IMG/VR virus record: IMGVR_UViG_3300031993_000006
Location: 64,001 to 128,000 of that record
Source of the DNA: a virus
Lineage: Duplodnaviria > Caudoviricetes
Length of the DNA stretch: 64,000 bases
Strand: one strand, 5' to 3'
Below the pieces are notes generated by a model. The model saw only the letters and a program-made list of their open reading frames with translations, was not told the origin of the DNA and ran no database searches. Positions 4,201-51,102 of this stretch are shown here, in pieces. Within the stretch, counting starts at the first letter, position 1. Each line of letters starts with the position of its first letter. Both the position numbers and the translations under genes were made by a program.

Positions 4201-7200
4201 ATCCTCATCAACTTGGCCAAGCAGCTTCTTGAGGAACCACCCAACACTAGCATATGCCCTGCTGTAGCCGCTCTCATCACGCATCAACATGTACACGAAG
4301 GCGGAGGCCAAATCATTATTAACTACCCCGTTATAAATCGCGCGAGTTTCTTTGTTAGCTTTATTGTCCAGCTTGCTAAGAATATCATCAAACGGAATCA
4401 AGGCACCACGATAACCCATCGTATCGCTCATGCCCAACGCATTATAGATACCGGCCAAAGTATCAGAATAATCTTCCTCTTGATACAAGTCTCTAATATG
4501 GCTACCAAAGACTGAATGGCGCAAGTCCGAAGTCTTTTCCGTATTAATACGAGAGCTACCGCCGGTCGCTACACCCGGAAGCATACCTACAGCAGCATAC
4601 TTGTTTGTGCGCTCGCCAGGACGGCTAGCAAAATCGTTGAACTTTCCAAGACCATTTACTTCGCCCGAAACAGTTTCAGTACGCTGATATGCTTCCAACT
4701 TCAATATGATATTTGCCACGGCCGTACTTAACTTATGTGCAACTTCATATATCACCTCAGGGTCACCATTGTTGACCTCTTCACGGTTGCTCAACCCATT
4801 GACCAATTTATCGAAACTGTCGCGAACATCATTGACGACATCGGCAATAATATAGTTATTAGCCTTTGCCACTCTACTATCGATAGCTTCCTTAATAGCA
4901 GCTGCCTCAGCCACAATGTTACGACGATAGATATCCCGCTTAGATGTCATAAATACATAGAAGGCATCGATTATCTTGGTAATAATCGTATGGGCATCTG
5001 TATTCTGTGCATAAGCCGTAATCGCGGCATTCCCGCTCGACACGTCATCGTTAAGTTCCTTAGCATCCGCGTGGGCTGAATCAAGAGCAGCAGCAAGCTT
5101 CTTAAAGTCAGTCTGACTTATGCGGTCATTTAACCGAAGACGCCCGCTTCCCGTATGATAAGCATCATCGCCAAACAGGATATAGCTCATCATCGTGCAA
5201 TCAGTTGCATCCTCAAAATCATTGGCATTATCATTAGACATCCGGAGCAACGCAGACTCGTCAATAGAATCCGTAGCTTCAGCCGTCTCATCGTCAGTAC
5301 CCATATAGGATTCCGGACTCACCAACCGGTCGATAGCGTTTTCCTCACCCTCACGTCCAAGCAACTCGTCATCTTCATGACCGGTAACTCGGCGAGGGTC
5401 ACTATGGCCATAACCCTTATTGTAATCAGTCTCCTGATGTCTAGACATATTAAGTTCATCAGGAACATCCTTGGCAGCCTGCATTGCTATGATAATATCA
5501 CCCAACGAACGCTGCATAATGACAGGATTGCGCTTAGCATACGGCTCAATAATTTCAAGGAGTTGCTGCATAGATTGCACAGCATCCGGAGAAAGGGCTA
5601 CGTTATCCAAATACTGAAGCAAAACATTGTATGCCGCGACATCAGCTTTCTGGTTTGTCTTGGCTTCTCTTGGAATAGCTCCCTTGATATGCTCAAGATG
5701 AACCCGAATCAAATCCTTAAGAGCCTTGATACTCTTCGCATACAATTCGTGTCGAGTGTCGGTATCGGCATTTTCAGGATTGTCCGCAATTTCCACAAAC
5801 CGTGTAGTTATTTCGCGCATTGCGGTGCGAACGGAATCCATACCTTCATAATAGTCAAAGGTCTCACCAATATTTGCCAGAGGATGGAAAACATGTTCAG
5901 CGTCAAGCTCAGTATTATTAACAGTTATCGCATACGCATCGCGCTCTTTTTCACCATTTTCACCCACCACGAAACTGCCATCCTCGTTACGGATACAGTA
6001 TTCGTTATCTTCCAGAGCACCCAATTCAGCCGCAGGAACTATCACAAACGGATAGTCGACACCATACAAATGGTTAGTGTCTTCGGCTTCAGTTCCGAAT
6101 GCCTTGATAAGTCTCATTAAGCGTACAAAATTAGCACCATCGGGACCGTGTTCAACCCATTTAAGAACGGATTCCAATTTGCGTACATTATCGAGACCAA
6201 TATTAAAGTCCTTATTCGAAGAATAATGCTTAATGTTTGCCATCAAAGCATCAGTAAGTTCGCTAACAGCAGTCGTGGCACCTTCATGCAGATTACCGTT
6301 CAACAAATTATACAGCTTCAAGTTTTCCCAAAGACCGTCAGGAATCTCATCGGCCAGTTGGCTCCGCTTTAAATCCTTGATGCCACTTCGTTCCTTATTG
6401 AAGAAGGTCAACGCATCAGCGATTGTCCCAAACTCGTTAACATCGATTCCGCTATGTTCAACGGCATCACTCATTTCCTGAATCAAGGAAATCGTTTTCG
6501 CTGAAGCCGTACCCATCGCCCAGGTAAACTTATTCATCGAAGGAGTAAACAGTTTACCCTGCGCAGAACCGCTATTGTCCGTAAGATGAACTTCGTTGGA
6601 AGCTCCATAGTAGTCATCGGACTTGCGGTAGGTGTTAGACGGACCGCTTTCGATTGACTTCGATGCAATAAACCGAATACCACGCCACACTGCATAGCAC
6701 TTAGTAGAGTCACCCGGGTCATCCATATATACGGCACGAGGGAATACCCAAGTATCAGCAGCGCTTTCCTGAACATCATAAGTAGCACTAAGTTGTCCTG
6801 ACTCAAATCGGATTCGATAAGTATTGTCGCCGTCATTTGAATGCAAAGCCTTGAGCACCGTACCGTGCATATACTTCAAAACCTCTTTACCAGCTTTGGT
6901 AATAGAGTCTTCGGCACCACCAGTCAGGCGAAGTCGACCACGCTCGCTCTTATTAATCACATACAAAGGCTGAGCATCATCCATTGTCAAACTAGAATCC
7001 AGTTCAACATTAAGTGACTGCTGCTTCACCTCAAATACATAGCGCAATATGTAAGCACGGATTTTGCCCATCCATGTCTCTGTATATGTTGTATTAAACG
7101 ACTCGACATCATCCTTTCGTGCAGGCACATTACGGTTCCGCACAGTTTCAAGTACAATTCGAGCAATATTATACCATTCACTTGTTTCAAGCGTTTCAAG

Positions 7201-9336
7201 CCAACGGTTACGGAGTTCAATTGCGTTCGCGACAGAAGAAGAACCGGAAGCAAGAGTATACAAGTAACTCTCGACCGCCGTAATAACCTCATCTATTTTG
7301 ATTCTCGGAGAAATCGACTGCAAAGTTAATGCATTTACAGCTTGTTCATCATCTTCAACAGTTTCGGTCGGCCTAGCGGCATCAATACCATCTATCTTCT
7401 GGATACGGGCATTAGTAGAACCTACATCGGTAACAAAGATAACCGCATAGGTAGCCAAAGCTATAGCATCCCTCCACATCGCCGTTTCAAAAGGCGATAC
7501 ATCAGAACCCGGAAACACCATTCGAGTGCAAAACAACGGAATTACGCATTCCGGAGCGACCAATGCATTAGTCACATCGTCTTCACCCGAATTCAAAGTT
7601 GCCATTTCCTGACCGGGCCACTTTAACGGATTGAGAGAATCACTATCAGTAAGACGCTGAGCATATGACCCAGCGTTCTCTGCCGGAGTCGATACATCGT
7701 TAGCTTTAGCAATAGTTTCACTGCTAGGAGTCTCAACCTTTGATGGCTTGGTACCAACATTCTCAGCGATATGCGTCAAGTCATCGTCAGAAGTAACACC
7801 GGTGGTAGCTTCGCTAGCATCAGGCGTCAAGCCAGTAACAAGACTAGCAGAAAACTCGCCAGAATGCATATTATCGACTAAGGTACCCACGAGAGCGGCA
7901 ATACGCAGCGAATGATAGTAATTACCCGTCTTTTCCTTGTTGGTCAAATTTGTGAGCAACTTATTAACAGAATCGCTCAAATAGGACCCTACCTGCTTCG
8001 AAAGAGGTGCAAGCAATTCAGTATAAAGCTTGCTCGAGCGTTCTACAGATTCGCCATCACTATTGTATTCACCGCTAGCATTTTTGCCAACGACATCGCC
8101 AATTCTAGCCAAAGTCCAGTTACTTATACCACTCTTGTATATTCTGCCATCACCGGCGGAAGCTACCCTAAATGCACGGATTGCATCCATTGCAGAAGCA
8201 TATTCGGCAAGGTCATCTTCAGTTGCGCCACTTTCGCGCAATACCTTCATCGCATAAGAGTTGTCGTTGTTATCACCGACCAACGGTTCCCGCTCGGGCC
8301 CGCAAGGCATAATCGGAGCAATAACCATCAATGCAGCCAACTGGCCGATACTATAATGCTTATTCAGTTCTCCGTCCACGGCGTTATCGTTAGCCTGTTC
8401 CTGAATAGTGCTGCTCAGTACACTATCGAGAGTCCTAAGCATTTTCTGCACGGAACCATTCGCGCCATTCTGAATCAAGTCAGCCAATTTTACCGTCAAG
8501 GCAAACACCGAGTTTGCTATATTAAGGTTTGCATCGGCATCGTTCTCATCATCACTGGACTTTAGCATAATTGATGCATAGAAAATATGCTCACGCAACT
8601 TAAGCTGCGCCCACTGCTCGGCGTTGACCAGTTTAAACCGGCCGTCCGCCTTAAGCTGAGCTTCCTGCTCCTCATCTTGAGGGCATTTATACCCAAACAA
8701 AGAATCAAAGTCTATACTATCCTTAATACGCCCAAGCATTTCGAGCTTAGCATTGGCGTTTTCCTTTTGAGAAGCCGATGCACGACCGCTTGAAGTAATC
8801 TTATTTAGCTTAGTCGACATGTAGTTAAGGAAACCGATAGTCGTATAACGAGTATCGTTAAGCTTTCGGTAAATGTCGCTCAGCTGATTGTTGACCATCC
8901 GGTTGCTAAAGGCAGTATCGGTTTCACCTTTACGGCCACCTTCGGTAACATGCAACAGGATACCGCCATAAAGATTATCCAACATCTTGCACAACGGATG
9001 TGCTTCCGGATTTATTGGCGTCTCACTCGGGATATATTCACTTCGAAGCGTATCGAAGGTAATACCCGGAATCTTCTTCACGGTTTCAGGTGACCTATCA
9101 GTCGGAAACCCGGTCGGGCGCCCAGCAGTGTATGTACCGTTGCTAAGCTCCGTATAGATATCGGCCACTTCAGGATGCACAAATGATACCAAGTATGCAA
9201 CTTCAGTACCTGTATTGAACATACTGGGCAGCTGGGATTTATAACCATTCTTTATAAACCGAATGTCATTGCTTGCGTTTGCATAGTTTCTAAGCAATTC
9301 CTTCCTGGTTTCTGCATCCATCGATAGATTGGCCAT
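1225..9336 (-). CDS. Giant hypothetical protein (2703 aa), possibly virion-associated
   Basis: Uninterrupted 8.1 kb ORF, GAGG RBS, TATAAACT upstream on the minus strand (9373-9380). No catalytic motif recognised. Confidence 0.85.
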   Translation of the reverse strand: MANLSMDAETRKELLRNYANASNDIRFIKNGYKSQLPSMFNTGTEVAYLVSFVHPEVADIYTELSNGTYTAGRPTGFPTDRSPETVKKIPGITFDTLRSEYIPSETPINPEAHPLCKMLDNLYGGILLHVTEGGRKGETDTAFSNRMVNNQLSDIYRKLNDTRYTTIGFLNYMSTKLNKITSSGRASASQKENANAKLEMLGRIKDSIDFDSLFGYKCPQDEEQEAQLKADGRFKLVNAEQWAQLKLREHIFYASIMLKSSDDENDADANLNIANSVFALTVKLADLIQNGANGSVQKMLRTLDSVLSSTIQEQANDNAVDGELNKHYSIGQLAALMVIAPIMPCGPEREPLVGDNNDNSYAMKVLRESGATEDDLAEYASAMDAIRAFRVASAGDGRIYKSGISNWTLARIGDVVGKNASGEYNSDGESVERSSKLYTELLAPLSKQVGSYLSDSVNKLLTNLTNKEKTGNYYHSLRIAALVGTLVDNMHSGEFSASLVTGLTPDASEATTGVTSDDDLTHIAENVGTKPSKVETPSSETIAKANDVSTPAENAGSYAQRLTDSDSLNPLKWPGQEMATLNSGEDDVTNALVAPECVIPLFCTRMVFPGSDVSPFETAMWRDAIALATYAVIFVTDVGSTNARIQKIDGIDAARPTETVEDDEQAVNALTLQSISPRIKIDEVITAVESYLYTLASGSSSVANAIELRNRWLETLETSEWYNIARIVLETVRNRNVPARKDDVESFNTTYTETWMGKIRAYILRYVFEVKQQSLNVELDSSLTMDDAQPLYVINKSERGRLRLTGGAEDSITKAGKEVLKYMHGTVLKALHSNDGDNTYRIRFESGQLSATYDVQESAADTWVFPRAVYMDDPGDSTKCYAVWRGIRFIASKSIESGPSNTYRKSDDYYGASNEVHLTDNSGSAQGKLFTPSMNKFTWAMGTASAKTISLIQEMSDAVEHSGIDVNEFGTIADALTFFNKERSGIKDLKRSQLADEIPDGLWENLKLYNLLNGNLHEGATTAVSELTDALMANIKHYSSNKDFNIGLDNVRKLESVLKWVEHGPDGANFVRLMRLIKAFGTEAEDTNHLYGVDYPFVIVPAAELGALEDNEYCIRNEDGSFVVGENGEKERDAYAITVNNTELDAEHVFHPLANIGETFDYYEGMDSVRTAMREITTRFVEIADNPENADTDTRHELYAKSIKALKDLIRVHLEHIKGAIPREAKTNQKADVAAYNVLLQYLDNVALSPDAVQSMQQLLEIIEPYAKRNPVIMQRSLGDIIIAMQAAKDVPDELNMSRHQETDYNKGYGHSDPRRVTGHEDDELLGREGEENAIDRLVSPESYMGTDDETAEATDSIDESALLRMSNDNANDFEDATDCTMMSYILFGDDAYHTGSGRLRLNDRISQTDFKKLAAALDSAHADAKELNDDVSSGNAAITAYAQNTDAHTIITKIIDAFYVFMTSKRDIYRRNIVAEAAAIKEAIDSRVAKANNYIIADVVNDVRDSFDKLVNGLSNREEVNNGDPEVIYEVAHKLSTAVANIILKLEAYQRTETVSGEVNGLGKFNDFASRPGERTNKYAAVGMLPGVATGGSSRINTEKTSDLRHSVFGSHIRDLYQEEDYSDTLAGIYNALGMSDTMGYRGALIPFDDILSKLDNKANKETRAIYNGVVNNDLASAFVYMLMRDESGYSRAYASVGWFLKKLLGQVDEDGQVHSIDFPEYVFSGVQREDSDEPSNVTFAEDGSRDTTAKIAKPFANIGEIAQATGGFIGTFEPNQGGNATEITEDIVMSIVRTIRTKVINRMLANNPVLDDLRKRDSETSRPLFKERINAFEKSIQASAARTCGETGYAPLARLYSCVDYGAIEDAMKATADRSADLLKTRQRTAQSNDIMRRVFGNHYSDAPQIDDDTLEGLAPEKLKSVLSVALGEMCQTGISPSIKKRNALKARDEQGTNLLGLFKGNDTAANDFISMCMDRIPLENAGALTVEQINEIADHIVNQVFAEHAPTENTGVFNEISTAMVSFGNGSVPKATAVKDIGEMIDPNGNMDDVAENILNEYARTLNRYEASGKPVNDAVRKNIANDILDKLYNRESEFSRQYIKKHTSSEADDLKAYRTMHGYSPVSDMSYLKTDEGSIGGASELHRKVYNILSENDAEEASLLKDLQFSIDHVNGAGALEKFNDKVNNLKSKLLALYDATVRFVMAKLQGAGNPKLLARAAMYRIGATPRDRDTNTTGIVRRRALDELEAVVSSIKDSLGYKNPNDKSIDLYGAQKSDPETHRISWGNNPIDVAVNRFIDTYCNVENSDNRERLEQWNTFYGKRMSQQAKEEMAKQFVEIRDVLASEFANDSGLYTKGAESLANAASASRGVYAPDVNLTRAQARELIRTFSKVRGFPIKENKNESDVLSNGSDKYIIGDSYATENECIAVLRAALQKYCDETGDTNMSELSADENVAKFIACVNQCTSFKPDISMNTDGITALLIGTLHARHMLSLSPIPGCVRIKRTVDIANAGRPKNEIVRQGRKKDACIFDVPASIIHELVDDALNDTSFTGSANEWESFARELSKYTLKGAKEIDETIGDERLKNQLLKLFMSVNDTRIPTRLNAALGGLSDEEREVLSHAGGTVTTDDGIKITRVNEPVANPKFDTGNQNIALNRHNPDAEIGYVNPDEPDEEQPAVNPEGGEPPKPEGNPEEDEF

Positions 9337-28539: not shown

Positions 28540-30512
28540 TGGGAGTCGCTCCGTTCAAGGTAGTATTCGACAATGTTGATGGCGTTCTAGGCAAGATGTA
28601 TGTCCAGTGCTCGGATGTGTATACCCGTAAGACCGTGTTTGCGTTTGTGCTCGACACGATGACTTACCACAGCAAGGAAAAGGAGCGCACATGGGAAGGC
28701 CAGTTCGGGTACCACGATTGTATCGAGAAGTTCTTCAACGGGGTGGAGCATACCTTGCCGATTGGGCTTATACCCCGAGTCAAGAATTACCTTAAGGAAA
28801 CGTTTGGCGAAAATGCCCATATCGGGATTACTGACTCCATCCGGCAGATGTTTTCGCCGCCATTCGGGAAGATTACCAGTGAGACCGTGCAGAAGTATGC
28901 CGACTCGCTCGGAATGTGGAGAAAGGCGGCGTATCTTAGGGATTTGGGTAAGGCTAATGCCGCGATTGCCCGCGGGGAAAGTGTGGAGGTTCCGGACAAG
29001 TCTAAGTATGGCCTCAAGCTGTTCGACCACCAGGAGCAGATTGTGCTCGAGGCGCTCAACCGCCGACGGATATCCCTGCTGGCCTGTACGAGTTCGGGCA
29101 AGTCGCTTTCGATGATGGTTATTGCCCGGTACCTTGTCGACCGGGAGAACCGGAAGGTATTGGTGGTCGTTCCGAACGCCGCGCTGGTGCAGCAGTTGTT
29201 CCGAAACTTTGCCGAGGACTATGGATGGGAGGAGGCTGGGGAACATTGCATCAGGATGTATGCCAACTCACCGGACAAGCTAAAGAAGAAGCAGAAGGAT
29301 GAGTTGAAGCGCCTCAAGCTTGGCGAAGAGGCGATGCTGAAGGATATCACCATTTCTACCTGGCAGTCCCTCAGGACGAAGCCGGACGCCTTCTTTAAGG
29401 TGTTTACTGCGGTGATGGTGGATGAGGCGCATACGGCAAAGGGTAAGGAACTCCGCGATATTCTCGCCAAGTGTACCAACGCCAACAATCTAAAGGTAGG
29501 CTTTTCCGGGACTCTCCCGGATGCCGAGCTTACCGCCGAGATTACTTCGTCTCCCAGGCTCCGTGCGATGCTTGGTGATGTACTCCCGGGTCAGCAGATG
29601 GATGAGAGTGAAGTACGAAAAGCTGACTTGAGCAAGTATATCGACGCTGGCTTTATCGAGGGGGGTATCGGTCCCCGTAAGGATATCGTTCACCTGTGGG
29701 AGCTTATTGCGAAAGGAATCCTTACCCCTGTCAAGGTGAAGGCTATATTCATTCCGTATCCCCAGTCGGTGCGTCCAAGTATATGTTCGGCGAAGTGCCA
29801 CTATGATACCGAGCGGGATATCGTGGTCGGCAACAGTTCTCGGAAGGATGTTATCGGCAGTATGTTCGACAACGGGTATGTCACTGCTGAACAGAACACG
29901 GTAATCCTCTACAACTTCAAGGAGAACATGTATTCTCTGCTGGAGCACCTGAAGGTGAAGCATCCTGAGTTCACTTATCATGTAGTCGAGGGCGATGTCG
30001 ATGTAGACGACCGAGACGATATCAGCGTGAAGCTTGAGGACGGTGTTGGTAATGTACTGATTGCCACTTATCAGTGCCTCCGGCAGGGCGTGAACATAAC
30101 CTTGCTCCATAACCTCATTATGGCTGAGCCGGTAAAGTCCCCGTATACCGTGATGCAGTCCATCGGCCGCATTGTTCGCAAGAACTCGACCAAAACTAGT
30201 GCGACCGTGTATGACCTCGTTGATGATGCGTCGTATTACACGAGTCCGTACGGGGGAGGCCCGGGTAGACTCAAGCTCAACTATATGATGAAGCATTTCT
30301 ATATTCGGGCGGGCTATTACGAGAAGGAGAAAATTCCCATTGAGGAAGAACACTTGGATGGTATATACGAGGCGCAGGTGACACCGGACGATGTTAAGCA
30401 GCGCCGCGATGCTGCTATCAAGAAAGCGCAGGAGAATATGGCCAAGCGTCGTTCTCAGCAGCACTTCAGCGCGATTCAGCAGTTCGGGCCCCGTACGATG
30501 TTCACAAAATAG
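28539..30512 (+). CDS. uvsW: UvsW-like SF2 DNA helicase
   Basis: Q motif DHQ, Walker A CTSSGKS, DEAH, GFSGT, QSIGR; T4-like N-terminal LPIGL. Confidence 0.9.
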   Translation: MGVAPFKVVFDNVDGVLGKMYVQCSDVYTRKTVFAFVLDTMTYHSKEKERTWEGQFGYHDCIEKFFNGVEHTLPIGLIPRVKNYLKETFGENAHIGITDSIRQMFSPPFGKITSETVQKYADSLGMWRKAAYLRDLGKANAAIARGESVEVPDKSKYGLKLFDHQEQIVLEALNRRRISLLACTSSGKSLSMMVIARYLVDRENRKVLVVVPNAALVQQLFRNFAEDYGWEEAGEHCIRMYANSPDKLKKKQKDELKRLKLGEEAMLKDITISTWQSLRTKPDAFFKVFTAVMVDEAHTAKGKELRDILAKCTNANNLKVGFSGTLPDAELTAEITSSPRLRAMLGDVLPGQQMDESEVRKADLSKYIDAGFIEGGIGPRKDIVHLWELIAKGILTPVKVKAIFIPYPQSVRPSICSAKCHYDTERDIVVGNSSRKDVIGSMFDNGYVTAEQNTVILYNFKENMYSLLEHLKVKHPEFTYHVVEGDVDVDDRDDISVKLEDGVGNVLIATYQCLRQGVNITLLHNLIMAEPVKSPYTVMQSIGRIVRKNSTKTSATVYDLVDDASYYTSPYGGGPGRLKLNYMMKHFYIRAGYYEKEKIPIEEEHLDGIYEAQVTPDDVKQRRDAAIKKAQENMAKRRSQQHFSAIQQFGPRTMFTK

Positions 30513-31903
30513 TGGGCAGGAAGATGCCACCCTTTAGGGTGGCTTAGGAATGCCCACGAGAACACTTTGGGAACACTTTCTTGGTTTCTTGCAGAGAAAT
30601 GAGTACAAAACGGTTGCAATTAGCACTGTACTTTTATAAACTTTAAGCTGAACACGGGTGAAAGTATGTGTACGATAACTTACGATAACTTATAATGCAG
30701 AGCTCCGCTTCAAGGATAGAGCAGACCAAGAATACTGGTCTAGTCTTCTTGGAACGGCTAGACTCGCATACAATGAGTGTGCCAACATACTAGATTCCAA
30801 CAAGATACACCTGGACTTGAAGTCCGTACACAATGCGGTGTACTATATATTACGGGAAGACTTTCCGACAATACCATCCCAAGGTATCATCAAAATATAT
30901 AAGGAGTGCATATCAGCATTCCGTTCAATCAACTCCAATGGACATATAGAACACAAGATTCCGACCAAGAAGAACCTGTCTATGCGGTTGGACAAGCGGC
31001 TCTACTCCAAAATGAGTATTGATGGAATATCGCTTTGCTCGGAGAAATCCAATCGTAGGGCAGTTGCCGAAATAGTCAAGTTTCCCCGACTGGTTGATTT
31101 GTTCAAGAAATTTCCGACCCAGGACCCACTCATCTTCAAGCGAGACGGCAAGTTCTACTTGTCCATTCCGTTTGATGCACCAGAAATTCCAGTACAGAAC
31201 GACACCTGCATCGGCGTAGACTTGGGAGAGCGTAGGTTTGCGATTACCTCGGATGGCATCATGTTCAACGACAAGGAATACAATGCCCGTAGGCGTAAAC
31301 TCCGCTACTTGAAGCGTTGCTTACAGAAGAAGGGAACCAAGTCTGCTAGACGGCATAAACGCAACTTATCAGTTAAGGAAATGAACCAGTCCACAGATAT
31401 GTGCTATAAAGTTGCTAATGCAATTATTGAAATCACGGTGGATAGCTTCATCGTCCTAGAAGATTTAAGCAATATCAAGAAGAATACTTCCAAGTCCAAG
31501 GAAGGGTTCAAGAAGAAAAATCATAACCGTAGAATTGGGCAGGTTCCGTTCTACAAATTCAAACAAATCTTGTCATACAAGGCACTACTCAATGGAAAAC
31601 GGGTAGAAACAGTTTCTCCGTTTATGACAAGCCAAACCGACTGCACGACAGGCAAGAAAGACGGAACACGCAAGAACCGAAGATTCTATTGCAAGAATGG
31701 TACCGTCCTTGATGCCGACTGGAATGGTGCAGTCAATATCGCTCAAAAGAGCAAACATCCTTTCTCGTTCAAGATGCCGCTAGACGGTACTCTGAAAACC
31801 TGGAAGGCAGGGTGCAAGTCAACCACCCAATCGTGTATCAGTCTCCCTCTGGAAACACCGGGAGCCGTACAAGCTCACCGCCTTTAGTCGGTGGGTAGTT
31901 GAC
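30513..31903 (+). mobile_element. IS200/IS605-family tnpB-only element #1
   Basis: Left-end hairpin GCCACCC-TTTA-GGGTGGC (30526-30543), right-end hairpin CTCACCG...CGGTGGG followed by TAGTTGAC (to 31903). No tnpA. Confidence 0.8.
30666..31887 (+). pseudogene. tnpB: TnpB RNA-guided nuclease, 5' end frameshifted by a 10-bp tandem duplication
   Basis: RuvC motifs GVDLG, VLEDL and DADWNGAVNI are intact. ATG 30666 reaches TAA at 30693 because TACGATAACT occurs twice (30671-30690). Removing one copy gives MCTITYNAELRF..., in frame with the 30817 ORF. Confidence 0.8.
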
Positions 31904-31916
31904 CCGTTAGATTTTT

Positions 31917-32709: not shown

Positions 32710-33153
32710 ATGGCAAATCTTAAGATTCAAGTTAAGTATCTTAACGAAACGGTAAATAGAATCGGCTTCGACGCTGAAGGCAAAGGGGATTGGATTGACC
32801 TCTACGCTGCTGAAGCAGTCGAATTGAAGGCTGGGGAACATAAGCTGGTTCATCTCGGGGTGGCGATGAAGCTACCGGATGATTATGAAGCTATCCTCGC
32901 CGAACGTAGTTCTACATTTAAGAATTACGGCGTTCTCCAGACCAATGCTATCGGTGTTATCGATAACAGTTACAGCGGTCCGGAAGACTGGTGGAAGTTG
33001 TCGGTCTATGCTACCCGCGATGTGACTATCCCGGCTGGCGCAAAGATTGCTCAGTTCCGAATCCAGAAGCGTCAGGGGCGCGATATCGAAATTGCCGAAG
33101 TTGCTGACCTTGAAGGCAAGAACCGTGGTGGTTTTGGTTCTACCGGTAAGTAA
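32710..33153 (+). CDS. dut: Trimeric dUTPase
   Basis: DWIDL, RSS, GVIDNSYSG, IAQ, RGGFGSTG. Confidence 0.95.
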   Translation: MANLKIQVKYLNETVNRIGFDAEGKGDWIDLYAAEAVELKAGEHKLVHLGVAMKLPDDYEAILAERSSTFKNYGVLQTNAIGVIDNSYSGPEDWWKLSVYATRDVTIPAGAKIAQFRIQKRQGRDIEIAEVADLEGKNRGGFGSTGK

Positions 33154-33174: not shown

Positions 33175-33206
33175 AAAGGGGCGCGTACTAGTTACGCGCC
33201 CTTTTT
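33175..33206 (+). terminator. Rho-independent terminator
   Basis: GGGCGCGTA-CTAGT-TACGCGCCC-TTTTT. Confidence 0.85.
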
Positions 33207-33212
33207 GATATG

Positions 33213-33389
33213 GTGAACTACGCACCGCCTAGAGGCAATGAGCTTCGCGTTAGTCCCGAATGGATGCCCGCGCCTTTAACCCCGATTTCCCCGAGGCGAG
33301 TACCTTGCGATACACTAATAGTTTATAAATTTTTACCCAATGTGTCAAGGGGCTTTCATATCACCGCCTAAAGATGGTGAGTTTTCCGC
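33213..33389 (-). mobile_element. Non-coding IS200/IS605 mini-element (left end, promoter, omegaRNA scaffold, right end)
   Basis: 33213-33300 aligns with the 3' end of tnpB element #2 (49813-49900). Left-end hairpin TCACCATC-TTTA-GGCGGTGA. TTGACA-17-TAAACT promoter on the minus strand (33348-33320). Confidence 0.8.
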
Positions 33390-33412
33390 CTATACTCTAT
33401 AAACTAGTCGAT

Positions 33413-36400
33413 ATGAATACGCTAGCTAATATCATCCTCGAATCTCATCTTGGCACCCGTATGCAGAACCTGCTGTACGAGGCCTGTTGCATTTTGGAAG
33501 CAACCAATATCAACAAGGACTACTTGTTGCATGTTGCCGGCTCGCCCGAGAAACTGGCTGATGCGAAAACCAAGGTCAACGAGGCTTGGGCGAATGCTTC
33601 CTTGGCAAATATTATTCCGGCGAAGCTGAACCAGAAGGTTCTTAATTTTACCTACCTGATGGAATTGTTGCAGCCCGGGTTTACCGATGGTGAGTATATT
33701 GCCCAGATTCACGATTTGGCTATCCAGCGTAGTCTGGAGCAGCGTTTTATTAACAAGGTTAATTCCGATACCGTACCTGAGCAGGCTAAGGCAATCCTTT
33801 ATTCGGCAAACGCCGATGCGGTGCAGGCTGCCAAGACATATCCTGAGCTTACTCCGGAGCAGGAGAGGATATGGAATCGCGTGAAGGTTTACCATGAGTT
33901 TCCCGATGGGTTCCGGTGGGTCTATGCCGTGGATGATAATGGTTGCAAGATTGGGTATATACCGTCTGCAATTACTGCGATTACGATGCATCATTGCGGT
34001 AACGAACCGTCCAAGAAGGAAGGAAATGAATATTGGGAATTGCGCGATGCTCGAGGTAAGGCTTATTTGACTGTTATCTTGAACGATGACGGGGGCATCG
34101 AGGAGTCCAAGTCTTGGGGAAACCAGCTTAACAAGTATACGGATATGATTCGGCCGCATGTAAAATGGTTGCTGAAGGACCGTCAGGTAACTGGCGTAGG
34201 TGACCGGTACAATGTCGGCTATGCACCCGATAGGAACTTTGGTGTTAAGGATTTCGTCGGAAAGGATGATGAATTCGTTGACTATGTGGTTGAAAATAAG
34301 CCTCAGCTCATTGGTAAGGCGGAAGCCCGTGTGTTGTTCTTGAAGGGTGCGATAGACAGCGGTGTGCTTTCTGTGCAGGATTTGAAGAATGCTTATGCGG
34401 AAGGAATGACTATCTCCGATTTGGAGGATATGGTTCCCGCATTGTCTGAATATGAGGAGCAAGCAAGGTTTAAGCTACCTACTGACGAAAAGGGCTGCTC
34501 TGCTGGTTCAATATTTGGATTTAACTCATTTGCTGTATTGTGTGCCGCGTGTGGGGGGAACCCGTTTAATAAAGAGGAACTTATATCCCTGATTATGGAG
34601 GATAAGATAAGCCTTGAAGTATTTGCGAACTATGATGTTCATTTGTTGACCGATGATATCCAGGCGGCTTTTGTTAAGGCTAACCCCACTCATAACTTAA
34701 ATGTCTTGCAGGAAATCGCGGCACAGGTTGCAAGTTTCACAATTTCTCCTACGACTATTGATGCTTTGTTTCCTGAAGCGAACGAGAATAGCAGCAAGGT
34801 AAATCTAGGTAATCGGTTGTATACTCTTTTGCGTTATGTGGAACAAGGTAATCCGCCGTCGAAGATGTATAAATATGCGGAGCGTTTATTTTTGACAGAA
34901 CCTTCCATTCGTGTATTGGAAGATGTTATTCGGAGTTCGGCTTACGAATATGGGTGGAATTTGGATTCTGTCGGGTGCTTGCAGCGATGCATTAACATAC
35001 TTCGTATTCACGATATCCCAAACCGTGTGGCCATTGTTACTCATTTAGCGGAAATCTTTAGTTCGGGTGACTTGGATAGCTTTAATGTTAATTCGAGCCA
35101 TGTAGCTGAAATGGTGGCATCATTTGATTTAATAGATAACGAAGAATTGATTAGTGGGCTTGGACGAGGATTGAGCACGGATGTTTTGCTTATGGCGTTG
35201 ACCGGATTGAGCGATAATACTGAATATGATGTTATACAGCATATGATTCATGTTATCGAGCGGATGAAAGGCCCTGAGTTCTTGCAGCAGCCGGAGATTT
35301 TAGGGAAGTTGACTGATTTTCGCCTAACTTGGGCTTTGATAAATATACATCCGGATAGCGAGGGTAGTGAGGATATTGCGATTAAAACTGCCAATCGCTG
35401 TTGTGCTATACTTTCATCAGGCCATAGTTCAAGCGACTTGAAAGGTTCGGCAAGAAGTATTCTCCTGCAGACTATGGGAAAGTTCCCCTCGATTATACCG
35501 GCGGTGTATGAAGAAGAAAAGGGTGACTTTATAAAGGCTATTGAAGCTGTAATGTCAAAGGAGAACTCCAAGGAAATAAAATCGGCTGGACTGTCTGAGC
35601 CGATGGTGGAAACTATAATCGATGCAATTGCAGGTATGGTCGAAATAAATACTGACCGCGACCGGAGCTGGGATTATGGGAACTCCCGGGAGATGTGTTG
35701 CGACGACTGGGAAAGGCTAGGAAAGTCATTGTGCTATATGGCAAGGCTGTACAGCATTCACCCAAAGGTACTTTGCGCGAAATGTCAGGAACGCTTGCCG
35801 GCTATGATAGAGTACAGGTGTAATGTTCCCGGCGCGTGGGATTTTTGTGAGGTTCCGTTTGAACAATGGGAAGCTGCATTTAGGAAATGGGGGTACAGAT
35901 TCCTGCGCTATTATGTTCTCCTTATGCCAGATGACCAGTTTAACGAAAGTAAGTTCATTAGTGACTTCGTTGTGAATAAGTTGGCTAATGCTGATGAAGC
36001 AAATGGTGATATTGTTGATGCGATTGAAAGAATGCGGAGTGGGATTGGACCCGGGAAGATGAGCCGCATCGCAAAGGTTATGTCATATAAGATTGTCCAC
36101 AATGAATTGCCGATGGATGAACAGCGGTTCAATGCGCTGTATCGGTTGCGTATGATTAATTCTGATGCTTATCGTGCATATATGAGCCGTATAAAGGAAG
36201 CTACTGGTTCCGACATTACGATTTCTTCGCTTGAAGATGCTGAAAACACGAACCGTATGATAAAGAGCATGACCAAGTACGACCGGATGCCGGATATTGT
36301 GTCGACAACAGTAAAATATCTGCTTGACTATATTTATGAACATCTCGGCGACGGAAGGCATACTTGGAGAGTTGACGAAGAGGCATACGAATATGTCGAT

Positions 36401-49812: not shown

Positions 49813-51070
49813 GTGAACTACGCACAGCATGAAGGCTGCGCGCTTCGCGATAGCCCCGTAGGGGCGCCCGCGCCTTGGACCGCCGTTCCGGCGGCGAGAA
49901 TTCTTTTACCTTCGGCAAGAATGTTGATGGCGGCGTTGAAGTCCCTGTCGTGGGAAGTGCCGCATTGCGGGCACTTCCACTCCCGGACATTCAAGTCTTT
50001 AACAACTTCATTCCTGAAGCCGCAGTAGTGGCAGATTTGCGAGGAAGGGAACCATCGTCCGACACAGACGATGGTCCTTCCATACCATTCAGCCTTGTAT
50101 TTCAGCATATTCAGGAATATTCCCCATCCGGTGTCGTGCTCGGACTTGGCAAGGTCGCCTTCGGCGACCTGCCTTACATCCAGGTCTTCGACTGCAATCG
50201 TTTGGTTCTCGCGAATGAGTCGGGTTGATAGCTTGTGGAGGAAATCCTTGCGTTGGCTAGCAATGTGCTCGTGAAGGCGGGCGATGCGCTTGCGCAGCGC
50301 CTCGCGACGGGCAGACTTGCTCTTTTTCTTTGAAAACGCTTTCTGGAGGACCGCTAGGCGGTACTCGGCAAGTTTCATATAGCGCGGGTTGGCGACGGCC
50401 TCGCCGTCGCTCGTCACGCAGAAGTCCTTGAATCCGAGGTCGATACCTATGGCATAATCGGATTTTGGGAGCGCCTTCGGCGCTTCCTCCTCGACCAGTA
50501 TCGAGGCGTAGAACTTTCCGGAACGCGACCGGCTTACGGTCGCGTGCTTGATATCCTTCTCGCTCCAGTCGATATCCTTATAGTTCTTGAACTTGACGAA
50601 GCCGATTTTCGGCAGGCGCAGCCTGCCGTTCTCGATTCGGATATTTTCCTTTGTTCGATAAGTGGTATAGGAATCGCGGTCGTGATGTTTGGCTTTAAAC
50701 TTCGGAAGGCCGACACCATCGGCCTTCCTCTCGAAGAAGTTCTTGAACGCAGCGTTCAGGTTGAGGACTTCGCCCGTTAGGGCGTTGCTATCGACTTCCT
50801 TCAAGAACGGAAACTTGGCATAGTAGTCGGTAGGTTTCGTCCGGCACTGTGTGCCGGTAGCCTCATACGACTTCAAACGGGCGTCCAGCATGCAGTTGTA
50901 CACCTTGCGGCAGCAGCCGAAGGTCTTGCCTAGCAAGACCGCCTGCTGCCGGCTTGGATATAGCCGAATGTTGTATGCCCGTTGAAACATGTCTTAAATA
51001 TATACTATTCTAGCTGTTTATGGGAGTGGTTTTTTATCTAACTGCCTTAAGGCGATGAGAATTCTTGTGG
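49813..51070 (-). mobile_element. IS200/IS605-family tnpB-only element #2
   Basis: Right end GCGCAGC-CTTCAT-GCTGTGC-GTAGTTCAC, left-end hairpin near 51036-51060, no tnpA. Confidence 0.8.
49818..50990 (-). CDS. tnpB: TnpB RNA-guided nuclease (intact)
   Basis: [30 protein letters not shown] and CPQCG zinc finger, [10 protein letters not shown]. Confidence 0.95.
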
Positions 51071-51102
51071 CTATTATATAAACTTGCTTTCAAATCACCC
51101 CG

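Follow-up and report, generated by a model that had tools for sequence, protein, structure and literature searches.

A Protein-Less Cassette With a TnpB omegaRNA Scaffold and Its Own Predicted Promoter in a Huge Phage: a Candidate Guide-Only Satellite

Introduction

A 186-bp segment without a protein gene, lying between the dUTPase gene and the gene for a 1098-residue protein in a huge phage, carries what appears to be a complete guide-RNA scaffold (omegaRNA) of the TnpB type behind a promoter of its own. The segment, cassette A, occupies positions 33213-33398 of the minus strand of the window, by which we mean the whole 64,000-nt stretch analyzed here (bases 64001-128000 of the 259,974-bp IMG/VR virus record IMGVR_UViG_3300031993_000006; 50% G+C, CheckV completeness 91%), and its limits are fixed by the uninterrupted, or empty, alleles of related phages. 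It consists, in order, of a left end, a TTGACA-17-TAAACT promoter, an omegaRNA scaffold of ~101 nt and a right end, and it is a protein-less, non-autonomous member of the IS200/IS605 family, of the kind called palindrome-associated transposable elements (PATEs). We consider it moderately probable that cassette A is a guide-only satellite that would borrow TnpB in trans for homing or retention; its transcription, its loading into TnpB, cleavage and biased inheritance are steps that we infer from the sequence.

In the mechanism that we propose, a single internal deletion of an ISDra2-like tnpB element would have produced a mini-element that then spread. Transcription from TTGACA-17-TAAACT would yield an RNA of ~100 nt that runs on into a guide, CATATCAAAAAGGGCG, supplied by the flank, and this RNA would be loaded in trans by the intact TnpB proteins of the phage, which would use TTTAT. 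The resulting complex would cut the uninterrupted allele (TTTAT plus target), whether that allele arises by excision or enters with a co-infecting related phage, and recombinational repair would copy the cassette into the cut genome.

Results

Boundaries of Cassette A and the Empty Alleles

Relatives were found through the 1098-residue protein, and their contigs were compared at the site between the dUTPase gene (32710-33153, Pfam dUTPase) and the gene for the larger protein, whose true start is placed at ATG 33413 on the basis of ten homologues of 1098 or 1099 residues. The site is uninterrupted in eight contigs (L163, L164, L167, L168 and L294-L297; six distinct alleles, 90-97% protein identity), in which the two genes lie 72-74 nt apart, as opposed to 259 nt in the window. 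With a slash at the insertion point, the empty allele reads ...TTTTTGATATG/ATAAACTAG..., GATATG being joined directly to ATAAACTAG; on the strand of the element it reads ...AGTTTAT/CATATCAAAAAGG.... The 186 bp are inserted exactly 3' of TTTAT and without target duplication, and these two properties together constitute an IS200/IS605 signature. Scarless empty sites of the form TTTAT/flank were recovered as six distinct alleles at this site (site A) and as one allele each at sites B and C, where the genome holds two further cassettes (see below). An orthologous cassette is present at site A in two contigs, L165 and L166 (96% identity; the sequences are identical to each other).

These alleles correct the initial annotation, which had been made from the letters of the window and had ended the element at 33389, with TATAG at the expected empty junction: the actual end lies 9 nt further on, at 33398, and the junction motif is TTTAT. 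This transposon-adjacent motif (TAM; ATAAA on the plus strand) occupies 33399..33403 of the minus strand, directly adjoining the left end, and forms part of an ATAAACT motif 7 nt upstream of the ATG at 33413. TTTAT likewise abuts the left ends of the two other cassettes and of three full-length tnpB copies. The left end itself (33349..33398, minus strand) shares 85-89% identity with those of the full-length copies in this genome. An IS605-type hairpin had been proposed here and is indeed present at 33361-33381 (CTCACCATC-TTT-AGGCGGTGA, subterminal), but in this copy it is imperfect; its counterpart in a relative's cassette, in contig L173, is perfect (CTCACCGCC-TTTA-GGCGGTGAG).

The omegaRNA Scaffold

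The right end of cassette A is ~78% identical over 64 nt to that of a resident full-length tnpB element (element #2), and an 88-nt local alignment starting at 33213, made with that same right end (49813-49898), scores 63, as against 15.3 +/- 2.2 for 300 shuffled sequences with a maximum of 25. The similarity that had been reported for this stretch free of open reading frames (ORFs) is thereby upheld. A 53-residue frame within cassette A is cut to 35 residues in the orthologue and absent from the other copies, and the five cassettes share no conserved ORF. The predicted scaffold (33213..33313, minus strand) is matched at 81.9 bits (E ~1e-20) by a covariance model based on 16 right ends, comprising this genome's copies and 72-92% related TnpB elements of other huge phages.

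Read from its 5' end, and on the minus strand throughout, the scaffold is predicted to form a GNRA hairpin, P0 (33300-33313); P1, or stem 1 (33279-33297), with a GAA pseudoknot triplet in its loop; P2, with an outer and an inner stem (stems 2/3; 33246-33272); and P3, which combines stem 4 and the right-end hairpin (33223-33240). The tail GCGUAGUUCAC (33213-33222) follows and bears UUC, the 3' strand of a three-pair pseudoknot with the P1 loop, the partners of which are present in every copy. Across an 18-sequence alignment, 91% of the cells in the 29 pairs of five helices are paired, compared with 28-37% for slid partners. Double changes occur in 15 of the 29 pairs, with double compensatory changes located in P0, P1, P2b and P3. 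The covariation score of 0.345 (0.05-0.08 slid, 0.139 shuffled), which none of 500 shuffles reached, is to be read with the caveat that structure and alignment derive from the same sequences. The structure-preserving substitutions to which the initial annotation had drawn attention, between cassette A and element #2, are present: CATTGCC/GGCGGTG versus GCGCAGC/GCTGTGC in the right-end hairpin, and CCTCG/CGGGG versus CCGCCG/CGGCGG in the 5' hairpin.

Compensated changes are also seen between the cassettes. P0 reads GUAUC-GCAA-GGUAC in cassettes A and B and GUACA-GUAA-UGUAC in cassette C, and the pseudoknot of cassette C is changed on both strands, from GAA/UUC to GAC/GUC, GAC being the sole complementary triplet in its P1 loop. 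By our estimate, a Watson-Crick match would arise by chance at the exact register with a probability of ~1-2%, and anywhere in the loop, G-U pairs included, with a probability of ~1/4; the compensated pseudoknot is thus supportive rather than decisive. Mapped onto the ISDra2 omegaRNA (see Discussion), the predicted helices and pseudoknot show that cassette A retains the whole functional omegaRNA core. No Rfam family reached threshold in the window, and relaxed scans of the cassette and of the right end of element #2 returned nothing relevant, which is weak evidence only, as Rfam is without a model for this scaffold.

The window was also compared with L165. The two cassettes are 87% identical overall, a divergence of 13% that is close to the 10.9% measured for third codon positions in the genes on either side, and the differences are unevenly placed. 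Only 3 fall in the 79 nt from the -10 box through P2, where ~9 would be expected, and none in the tail or in the -10 box itself, while the promoter spacer differs at 6 of 18 positions (33%) and the P3 hairpin also at 6 of 18, with pairing kept. For the deficit in the 79-nt core, a neutral rate assumed to be 13% gives P = 0.006, and the measured 10.9% gives, by our estimate, ~0.03. We take this as moderate evidence that the core is under purifying selection.

A separate observation concerns the tail. The triplet that serves as the tnpB stop codon in coding elements (UAG in GUAGUUCAC) appears as UAG, UAA or UGA in three gene-less cassette tails (window 33213-33222; L002:1501-1510; L173:2983-2992). 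Stop triplets in untranslated tails may reflect chance, or right ends exchanged with coding elements.

The Promoter and the ATAAACT Motif

A promoter scan recovers the TTGACA-17-TAAACT sequence on the minus strand at 33348..33320 that the initial annotation had noted, with 10 of 12 consensus matches: TTGACA at 33348-33343, a 17-nt spacer, and TAAACT at 33325-33320. Among the five cassettes, TTGAC is kept in all (as TTGAC(A/C)) and TAAACT in four, with TATATT in cassette C; the boxes are 17-18 nt apart and the spacers differ. The distance from the -10 box to the first G of P0 is exactly 6 nt in all five, and in each the predicted transcription start coincides with the first base of P0; in cassette A this is G 33313, 7 nt past the -10 box. 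Relative to the left ends of the full-length copies, the cassettes have ~20 extra nt, which create the -35 box. In the 260-kb genome, TTGACA-N16-18-TAAACT occurs only in the two A-type cassettes (0.5 occurrences expected).

The -10 box of the cassette matches a motif of the phage at large. Of the 56 occurrences of ATAAACT (often TATAAACT; window examples at 33399, 51078, 9437 and 11450), 49 have an ATG that opens an ORF of 60 or more residues 1-37 nt downstream, and 50 have one within 80 nt, compared with ~25% for control heptamers; the placement of ATAAACT suggests that it is probably a promoter motif of the phage, and it also stands upstream of tnpB in the full-length copies. AGTTTAT, that is, the TAM with its two usual preceding bases, is the reverse complement of ATAAACT, and most of the elements therefore sit back-to-back with the phage's motif and leave it intact.

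Guides and Targets

The predicted 16-nt guide segment CATATCAAAAAGGGCG (33197..33212, minus strand) lies directly 3' of the scaffold, in the flank adjoining the right end, and overlaps, in reverse complement, the tail of the dUTPase terminator. In sequence, then, the complete scaffold of ~100 nt followed by this guide is as had been proposed. So, too, are the cassette-free alleles with TAM and matching target that had been postulated in related phages. The guide of cassette A matches the TAM-adjacent sequence of the L297 empty allele at 16 of 16 positions, with near-identical sequences in L296, L163 and L294. Of the empty alleles of site A other than that of L297, three match the first 11-14 nt and two carry a mismatch at position 6. 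Most of the target changes are length changes in the T-run of the terminator. The empty alleles of the other sites mismatch their guides at positions 11, 12 and 15 (B) and at position 4 (C). Escape mutation was considered for eight empty alleles and ruled out: one allele matches perfectly, and in several the differences begin only past position 11-14.

For the six guides of the phage, no TAM-adjacent target with five or fewer mismatches in 16 was found in its own genome, as expected for guides aimed only at the empty allele. A nuclease-dead repressor of the TldR type was likewise rejected as a candidate, given intact RuvC motifs and no such self target.

Resident TnpB Nucleases

Element #2 is a full-length tnpB element of 1265 bp on the minus strand (49813..51077), next to a TTTAT TAM at 51078-51082. 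Its 390-residue TnpB (49818-50990, minus strand; Pfam OrfB_IS605, Cas12f1-like_TNB and HTH_OrfB_IS605) matches the solved ISDra2 TnpB at E 1.5e-83 and has all three RuvC motifs (GIDLG, AVEDL and DRDFNAA). The omegaRNA scaffold of the element (49813-49917, minus strand; covariance model 113 bits) is embedded in the 3' end of the ORF. With a paralogue 94% identical to it, the phage has two intact 390-residue ISDra2-like TnpB genes, each with TTTAT adjoining its left end, so that the intact TnpB invoked in the initial annotation has been found twice over, with the same TAM.

The same tnpB family is represented in the genome by three full-length copies, the two intact ones and a third, at C1:162606-163789, that is apparently frame-broken (two tblastn segments; a 178-residue open frame). 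A fourth, C1:1-962, is cut by the contig start; because the record begins inside this copy, the assembly probably broke at the repeat. TnpB-like genes number eight in the record, and no match to Y1_Tnp, the Y1 transposase TnpA, was found in its 260 kb.

TnpB #1 belongs to an unrelated tnpB-only element on the plus strand (30503-31904; ORF 30817-31887, 356 residues, Pfam TNB domain) inserted in the final codons of a helicase gene. In relatives, the gap between helicase and NIF3 is 21 nt and reads ...GATGTTTAC/TCGTTAGATT...; in the window TTCAC (TTTAC in the relatives) precedes the element, which takes the place of the final two helicase codons and has ...GGGTAGTTGAC as its end, ahead of CCGTTAG.

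Other Cassettes and Their Origin

Scanning the genome for orphan copies with the covariance model, as the initial annotation had suggested, returns exactly the six expected sites and a weak match at TnpB #1, and brings to light two more ORF-less cassettes, each bounded by TTTAT: cassette B (C1:251308-251462) and cassette C (C1:130735-130889). Relatives carry empty alleles for both (L170 and L171 for B, L172 for C), and L173, a 78% relative, has an intact cassette at the C site in which the left-end and right-end hairpins are identical (CACCGCC-TTTA-GGCGGTG). The left-end hairpin is deleted in B and C. Cassette C has, moreover, a short 4-bp stem in place of its right-end hairpin, and because of these two changes it is unlikely to be a transposase substrate; its promoter, P0, P1 and P2 are kept. 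Cassette B has the sense orientation and separates a stop codon from its terminator.

A 31-nt junction running from the promoter to P1, TAAACTATTAGTGTATCGCAAGGTACTCGCC, is identical in the cassettes at three sites (A, B and the C site of L173), in phages with 78-96% identity between flanking proteins. It follows that the internal deletion took place a single time and that the mini-element moved afterwards. An origin of cassette A as a remnant of deletion in situ is ruled out on the same ground, the deletion junction being shared by three different loci.

Searches further afield gave little. The five other huge phages with 72-92% identical TnpB, which are not relatives of this phage, have full-length right ends only and no orphan cassettes. 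Exact patterns of the cassette core and of the promoter-P0 junction had no match in viral or metagenome contig collections, and a flank pattern had none in the viral contig collection; two looser patterns gave mostly chance matches in public contig collections, and blastn of the cassette region against the phage collection gave no match. On genome-contig loci the covariance model gave only three weak matches (Methanosarcina, Halogeometricum and an uncultured bacterium), and thus no host or autonomous tnpA-bearing relative was identified.

The hairpins of the family hold a further observation. A sister subfamily in other huge phages (L134-L141; 74-76% TnpB identity) has CACCGCC-TTTA-GGCGGTG as its right-end hairpin, which is the left-end hairpin of this phage, and the right-end hairpin of this phage's own full-length copies differs from it (GCGCAGC...GCTGTGC). 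The cassettes mix features of both subfamilies.

Discussion

The interpretation given in the initial annotation, in which the cassette supplies a trans-acting guide to the phage's own TnpB, is partly supported by these comparisons. Several observations nonetheless weigh against the reading of cassette A as a satellite that homes with a borrowed nuclease. The cassette is a minority allele at site A, present in 2 of 10 sampled contigs, and those two are identical. Across most of the region the two occupied genomes are closer to each other than to any of the rest, and one ancestral insertion therefore suffices to explain site A without drive. In the occupancy of site A and in the trees of its flanks we looked for a positive sign of homing or drive and found none. 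Within the RNA, the inner P2 stem is weakened in cassette A by two changes (AUCC/GGGA, as compared with GUCCC/GGGAC in L165), folding of single sequences gives energies in the ordinary range (z -1.1 to -1.6), and past nt 12 the guide enters a strong hairpin that is the dUTPase terminator in reverse complement. The left-end hairpin, as noted, is imperfect. Because the cassette scaffold differs from those of the resident TnpB elements in P1, P2b and P3, its recognition by the resident TnpB is an assumption of the proposal. The promoter specificity of the host, possibly Fibrobacter, may not be that of Escherichia coli, in which case the -35 box may have to be read differently.

The upstream and downstream trees of site A do disagree, as co-conversion would lead one to expect. 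Sliding-window comparison, however, shows that the conflict stems not from the cassette but from a hypervariable segment at a distance of 2 kb, so that it is no evidence for homing, and co-conversion was rejected as its cause. The segment (window 35200-36000, inside the gene for the 1098-residue protein) has two allelic types among relatives that are otherwise 92-97% identical, with 65-70% identity between types and ~90% within a type. The presence/absence polymorphism at all three sites reflects recent mobility or loss, and does not reveal the mechanism.

The main rival explanation, to which we assign a smaller though appreciable probability, is that the cassettes are inert remnants: PATE-type mini-transposons, now functionless, whose RNA is not made or not used, whose polymorphism records past transposition and ordinary recombination, and which persist only because deletion is slow. 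The low allele frequency and single-gain pattern, the weakened P2 stem, the unremarkable folding energies and the left-end hairpins (imperfect in A, deleted in B and C) all fit this account, as do the absence of any TnpA found in the phage and the closeness of the 13% divergence between orthologous cassettes to the silent-site value of 10.9%. What it accommodates poorly is the pattern of what has been kept. TTGAC persists in five cassettes, and the -10 box and spacing in four, across diverged spacers; the 79-nt core has a third of its expected differences; double compensatory changes are found in four helices; the 31-nt promoter-to-P1 block is invariant at three loci; and the pseudoknot is compensated in cassette C, the very copy that is without transposition signals.

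Two other accounts leave the RNA functional but would put it to different use. TnpB and its guides may act as a competition weapon without gene conversion, destroying cassette-less co-infecting genomes to the benefit of the phage and not of the cassette. TAM and target are present in related phages, the three guides address three different loci, and homing endonucleases encoded by phages are known to do the same (PMC11620839). We nevertheless think this improbable: most sampled relatives are without cassettes and co-exist with cassette-bearing phages, the empty alleles show no consistent escape changes, and with flanks more than 90% identical, repair and conversion would be expected in preference to loss. 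More improbable still, in our judgment, is that the insertion is regulatory, so that an outward promoter or an antisense RNA would affect the 3' end of the dUTPase gene or the gene for the 1098-residue protein, or the cassette would guide a nuclease-dead, TnpB-like repressor. Cassette A does have a terminator on one side and the ATAAACT of the next gene on the other, and is predicted to fire antisense towards the dUTPase gene. Cassette B, however, in sense between a stop codon and a terminator, shares no such geometry; the ATAAACT of the downstream gene is intact; most relatives express the same genes without a cassette; the guides are without a TAM-adjacent match in their own genome; and the resident TnpB, unlike TldR-type repressors, keeps its three RuvC motifs.

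The notion of a guide-only cassette is not new. PATEs were first named in haloarchaea (PMC3119063), and PATEs that encode omegaRNAs are already on record: Meers et al. 2023 (PMC10055086), who studied PATE-like elements of Geobacillus, state that PATEs frequently code for omegaRNAs dependent on TnpB in trans. Our literature search found no published description of such cassettes in phages, and no report showing function for guide-only derivatives of TnpB transposons, which are mentioned in the literature. Among the closest parallels are the ISGst PATEs of Geobacillus stearothermophilus (PMC10055086), which likewise have no protein gene, bear the left and right ends of a tnpB-bearing family, insert next to a TAM, occur in several copies per genome, and retain at the right end an omegaRNA scaffold for which the flank serves as guide and TnpB is needed in trans. 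The cassette described here differs in residing in a 260-kb phage without TnpA and in having a consensus -35 box added upstream of the -10 box. Two of the three copies have, moreover, lost one or both transposase hairpins and keep promoter and scaffold, and empty, guide-matching alleles are documented in related phages. A PATE with IStron ends is known from Clostridioides difficile (Zedaveinyte et al., bioRxiv 10.1101/2023.11.20.567912); it, too, is an ORF-less derivative that keeps the ends of a TnpB-bearing element, whereas our cassette has no group I intron and lies in a phage genome.

At the level of the RNA, a close point of comparison is ISDra2 of Deinococcus radiodurans (structures 8bf8, 8ex9 and 8h1j). 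The ISDra2 omegaRNA has a 116-nt core with stems 1-4, a pseudoknot that joins positions -5 to -3 to the stem 1 loop, non-canonical pairing of -6G and -2A, and a UUUA loop in stem 4 at -20 to -17; its 5' region and stem 3b are dispensable (PMC10097598). These features map one-to-one onto the cassette, in that P1 corresponds to stem 1, P2 to stems 2/3 and P3 to stem 4. UUC in the cassette tail GUUCAC is the 3' pseudoknot strand, the tail has the form G-U-N-C-A, and stem 4 has a loop of the UUUA type ~18-21 nt from the end. In this phage, as in ISDra2, the tnpB ORF overlaps the scaffold. The cassette scaffold is, however, shorter (~86 nt from stem 1 to the end, as opposed to 116 nt), begins with an additional 5' GNRA hairpin, P0, and goes with TTTAT instead of TTGAT as TAM; with a promoter of its own, the cassette RNA would not have to be excised from tnpB mRNA.

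As for the proposed mode of spread, a 2026 review recognizes, as a theoretical category backed by one plasmid experiment, "transposon non-restorative homing" that is independent of TnpA and has co-infecting phages or plasmids as its recipients (PMC13565253). The free-standing and intron-borne homing endonuclease genes of T-even and jumbo phages offer a parallel, in that cleavage of the element-free allele followed by recombinational copying is what we propose here. Unlike those genes, the arrangement would be split, with the specificity RNA encoded at the homing site and the nuclease elsewhere, and several sites could share one nuclease. Another parallel is seen in the mini-CRISPR arrays and solitary repeat units of viruses, which make use of a Cas effector in trans and resemble the cassettes as guide-only loci with the nuclease elsewhere and several guides per effector. 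The cassettes have, in contrast, neither repeats nor spacer acquisition, and the guide of each is fixed by its insertion site and can match only its own empty allele.

The identity of the host bears on how the promoter is read. One homologue of the 1098-residue protein is annotated in a metagenome-assembled genome of Fibrobacter sp., and a 76% relative, L169, has between the dUTPase gene and the large gene an extra gene (1975-2589) with a Fibrobacter succinogenes major paralogous domain; on these two grounds the host may be Fibrobacter. L169 also has a 407-residue TnpB inserted 3' of the large gene (6138-7361).

Beyond the known picture lie the setting in a phage without a transposase, the added consensus promoter, the immobilized copies that still look selected, and the target in a promoter motif. 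A bolder extension, which we put forward tentatively and regard as rather unlikely, is that TnpB and several dispersed, promoter-driven guide cassettes together form a distributed multi-guide system for homing or competition in a phage without a transposase, with B and C kept by selection on the RNA only. The elements would, on this extension, target the reverse complement of the phage's ATAAACT promoter motif. If it is true, B and C are guide-only selfish genes and a natural intermediate between a transposon nuclease with one guide and a multi-guide, CRISPR-like arrangement.

The phage is a compact natural test system, in which two nuclease genes are intact and the sites of three guide cassettes are known; its wild relatives have an orthologous cassette or else the exact empty target. 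As the phage has no transposase, biased inheritance would stem from RNA-guided homing alone. If homing proves false, the cassettes are ordinary decaying mini-transposons. If it proves true, an RNA gene of ~100 nt can act as a selfish homing element with a borrowed nuclease, and the finding would bear on how single-guide transposon nucleases became multi-guide systems.

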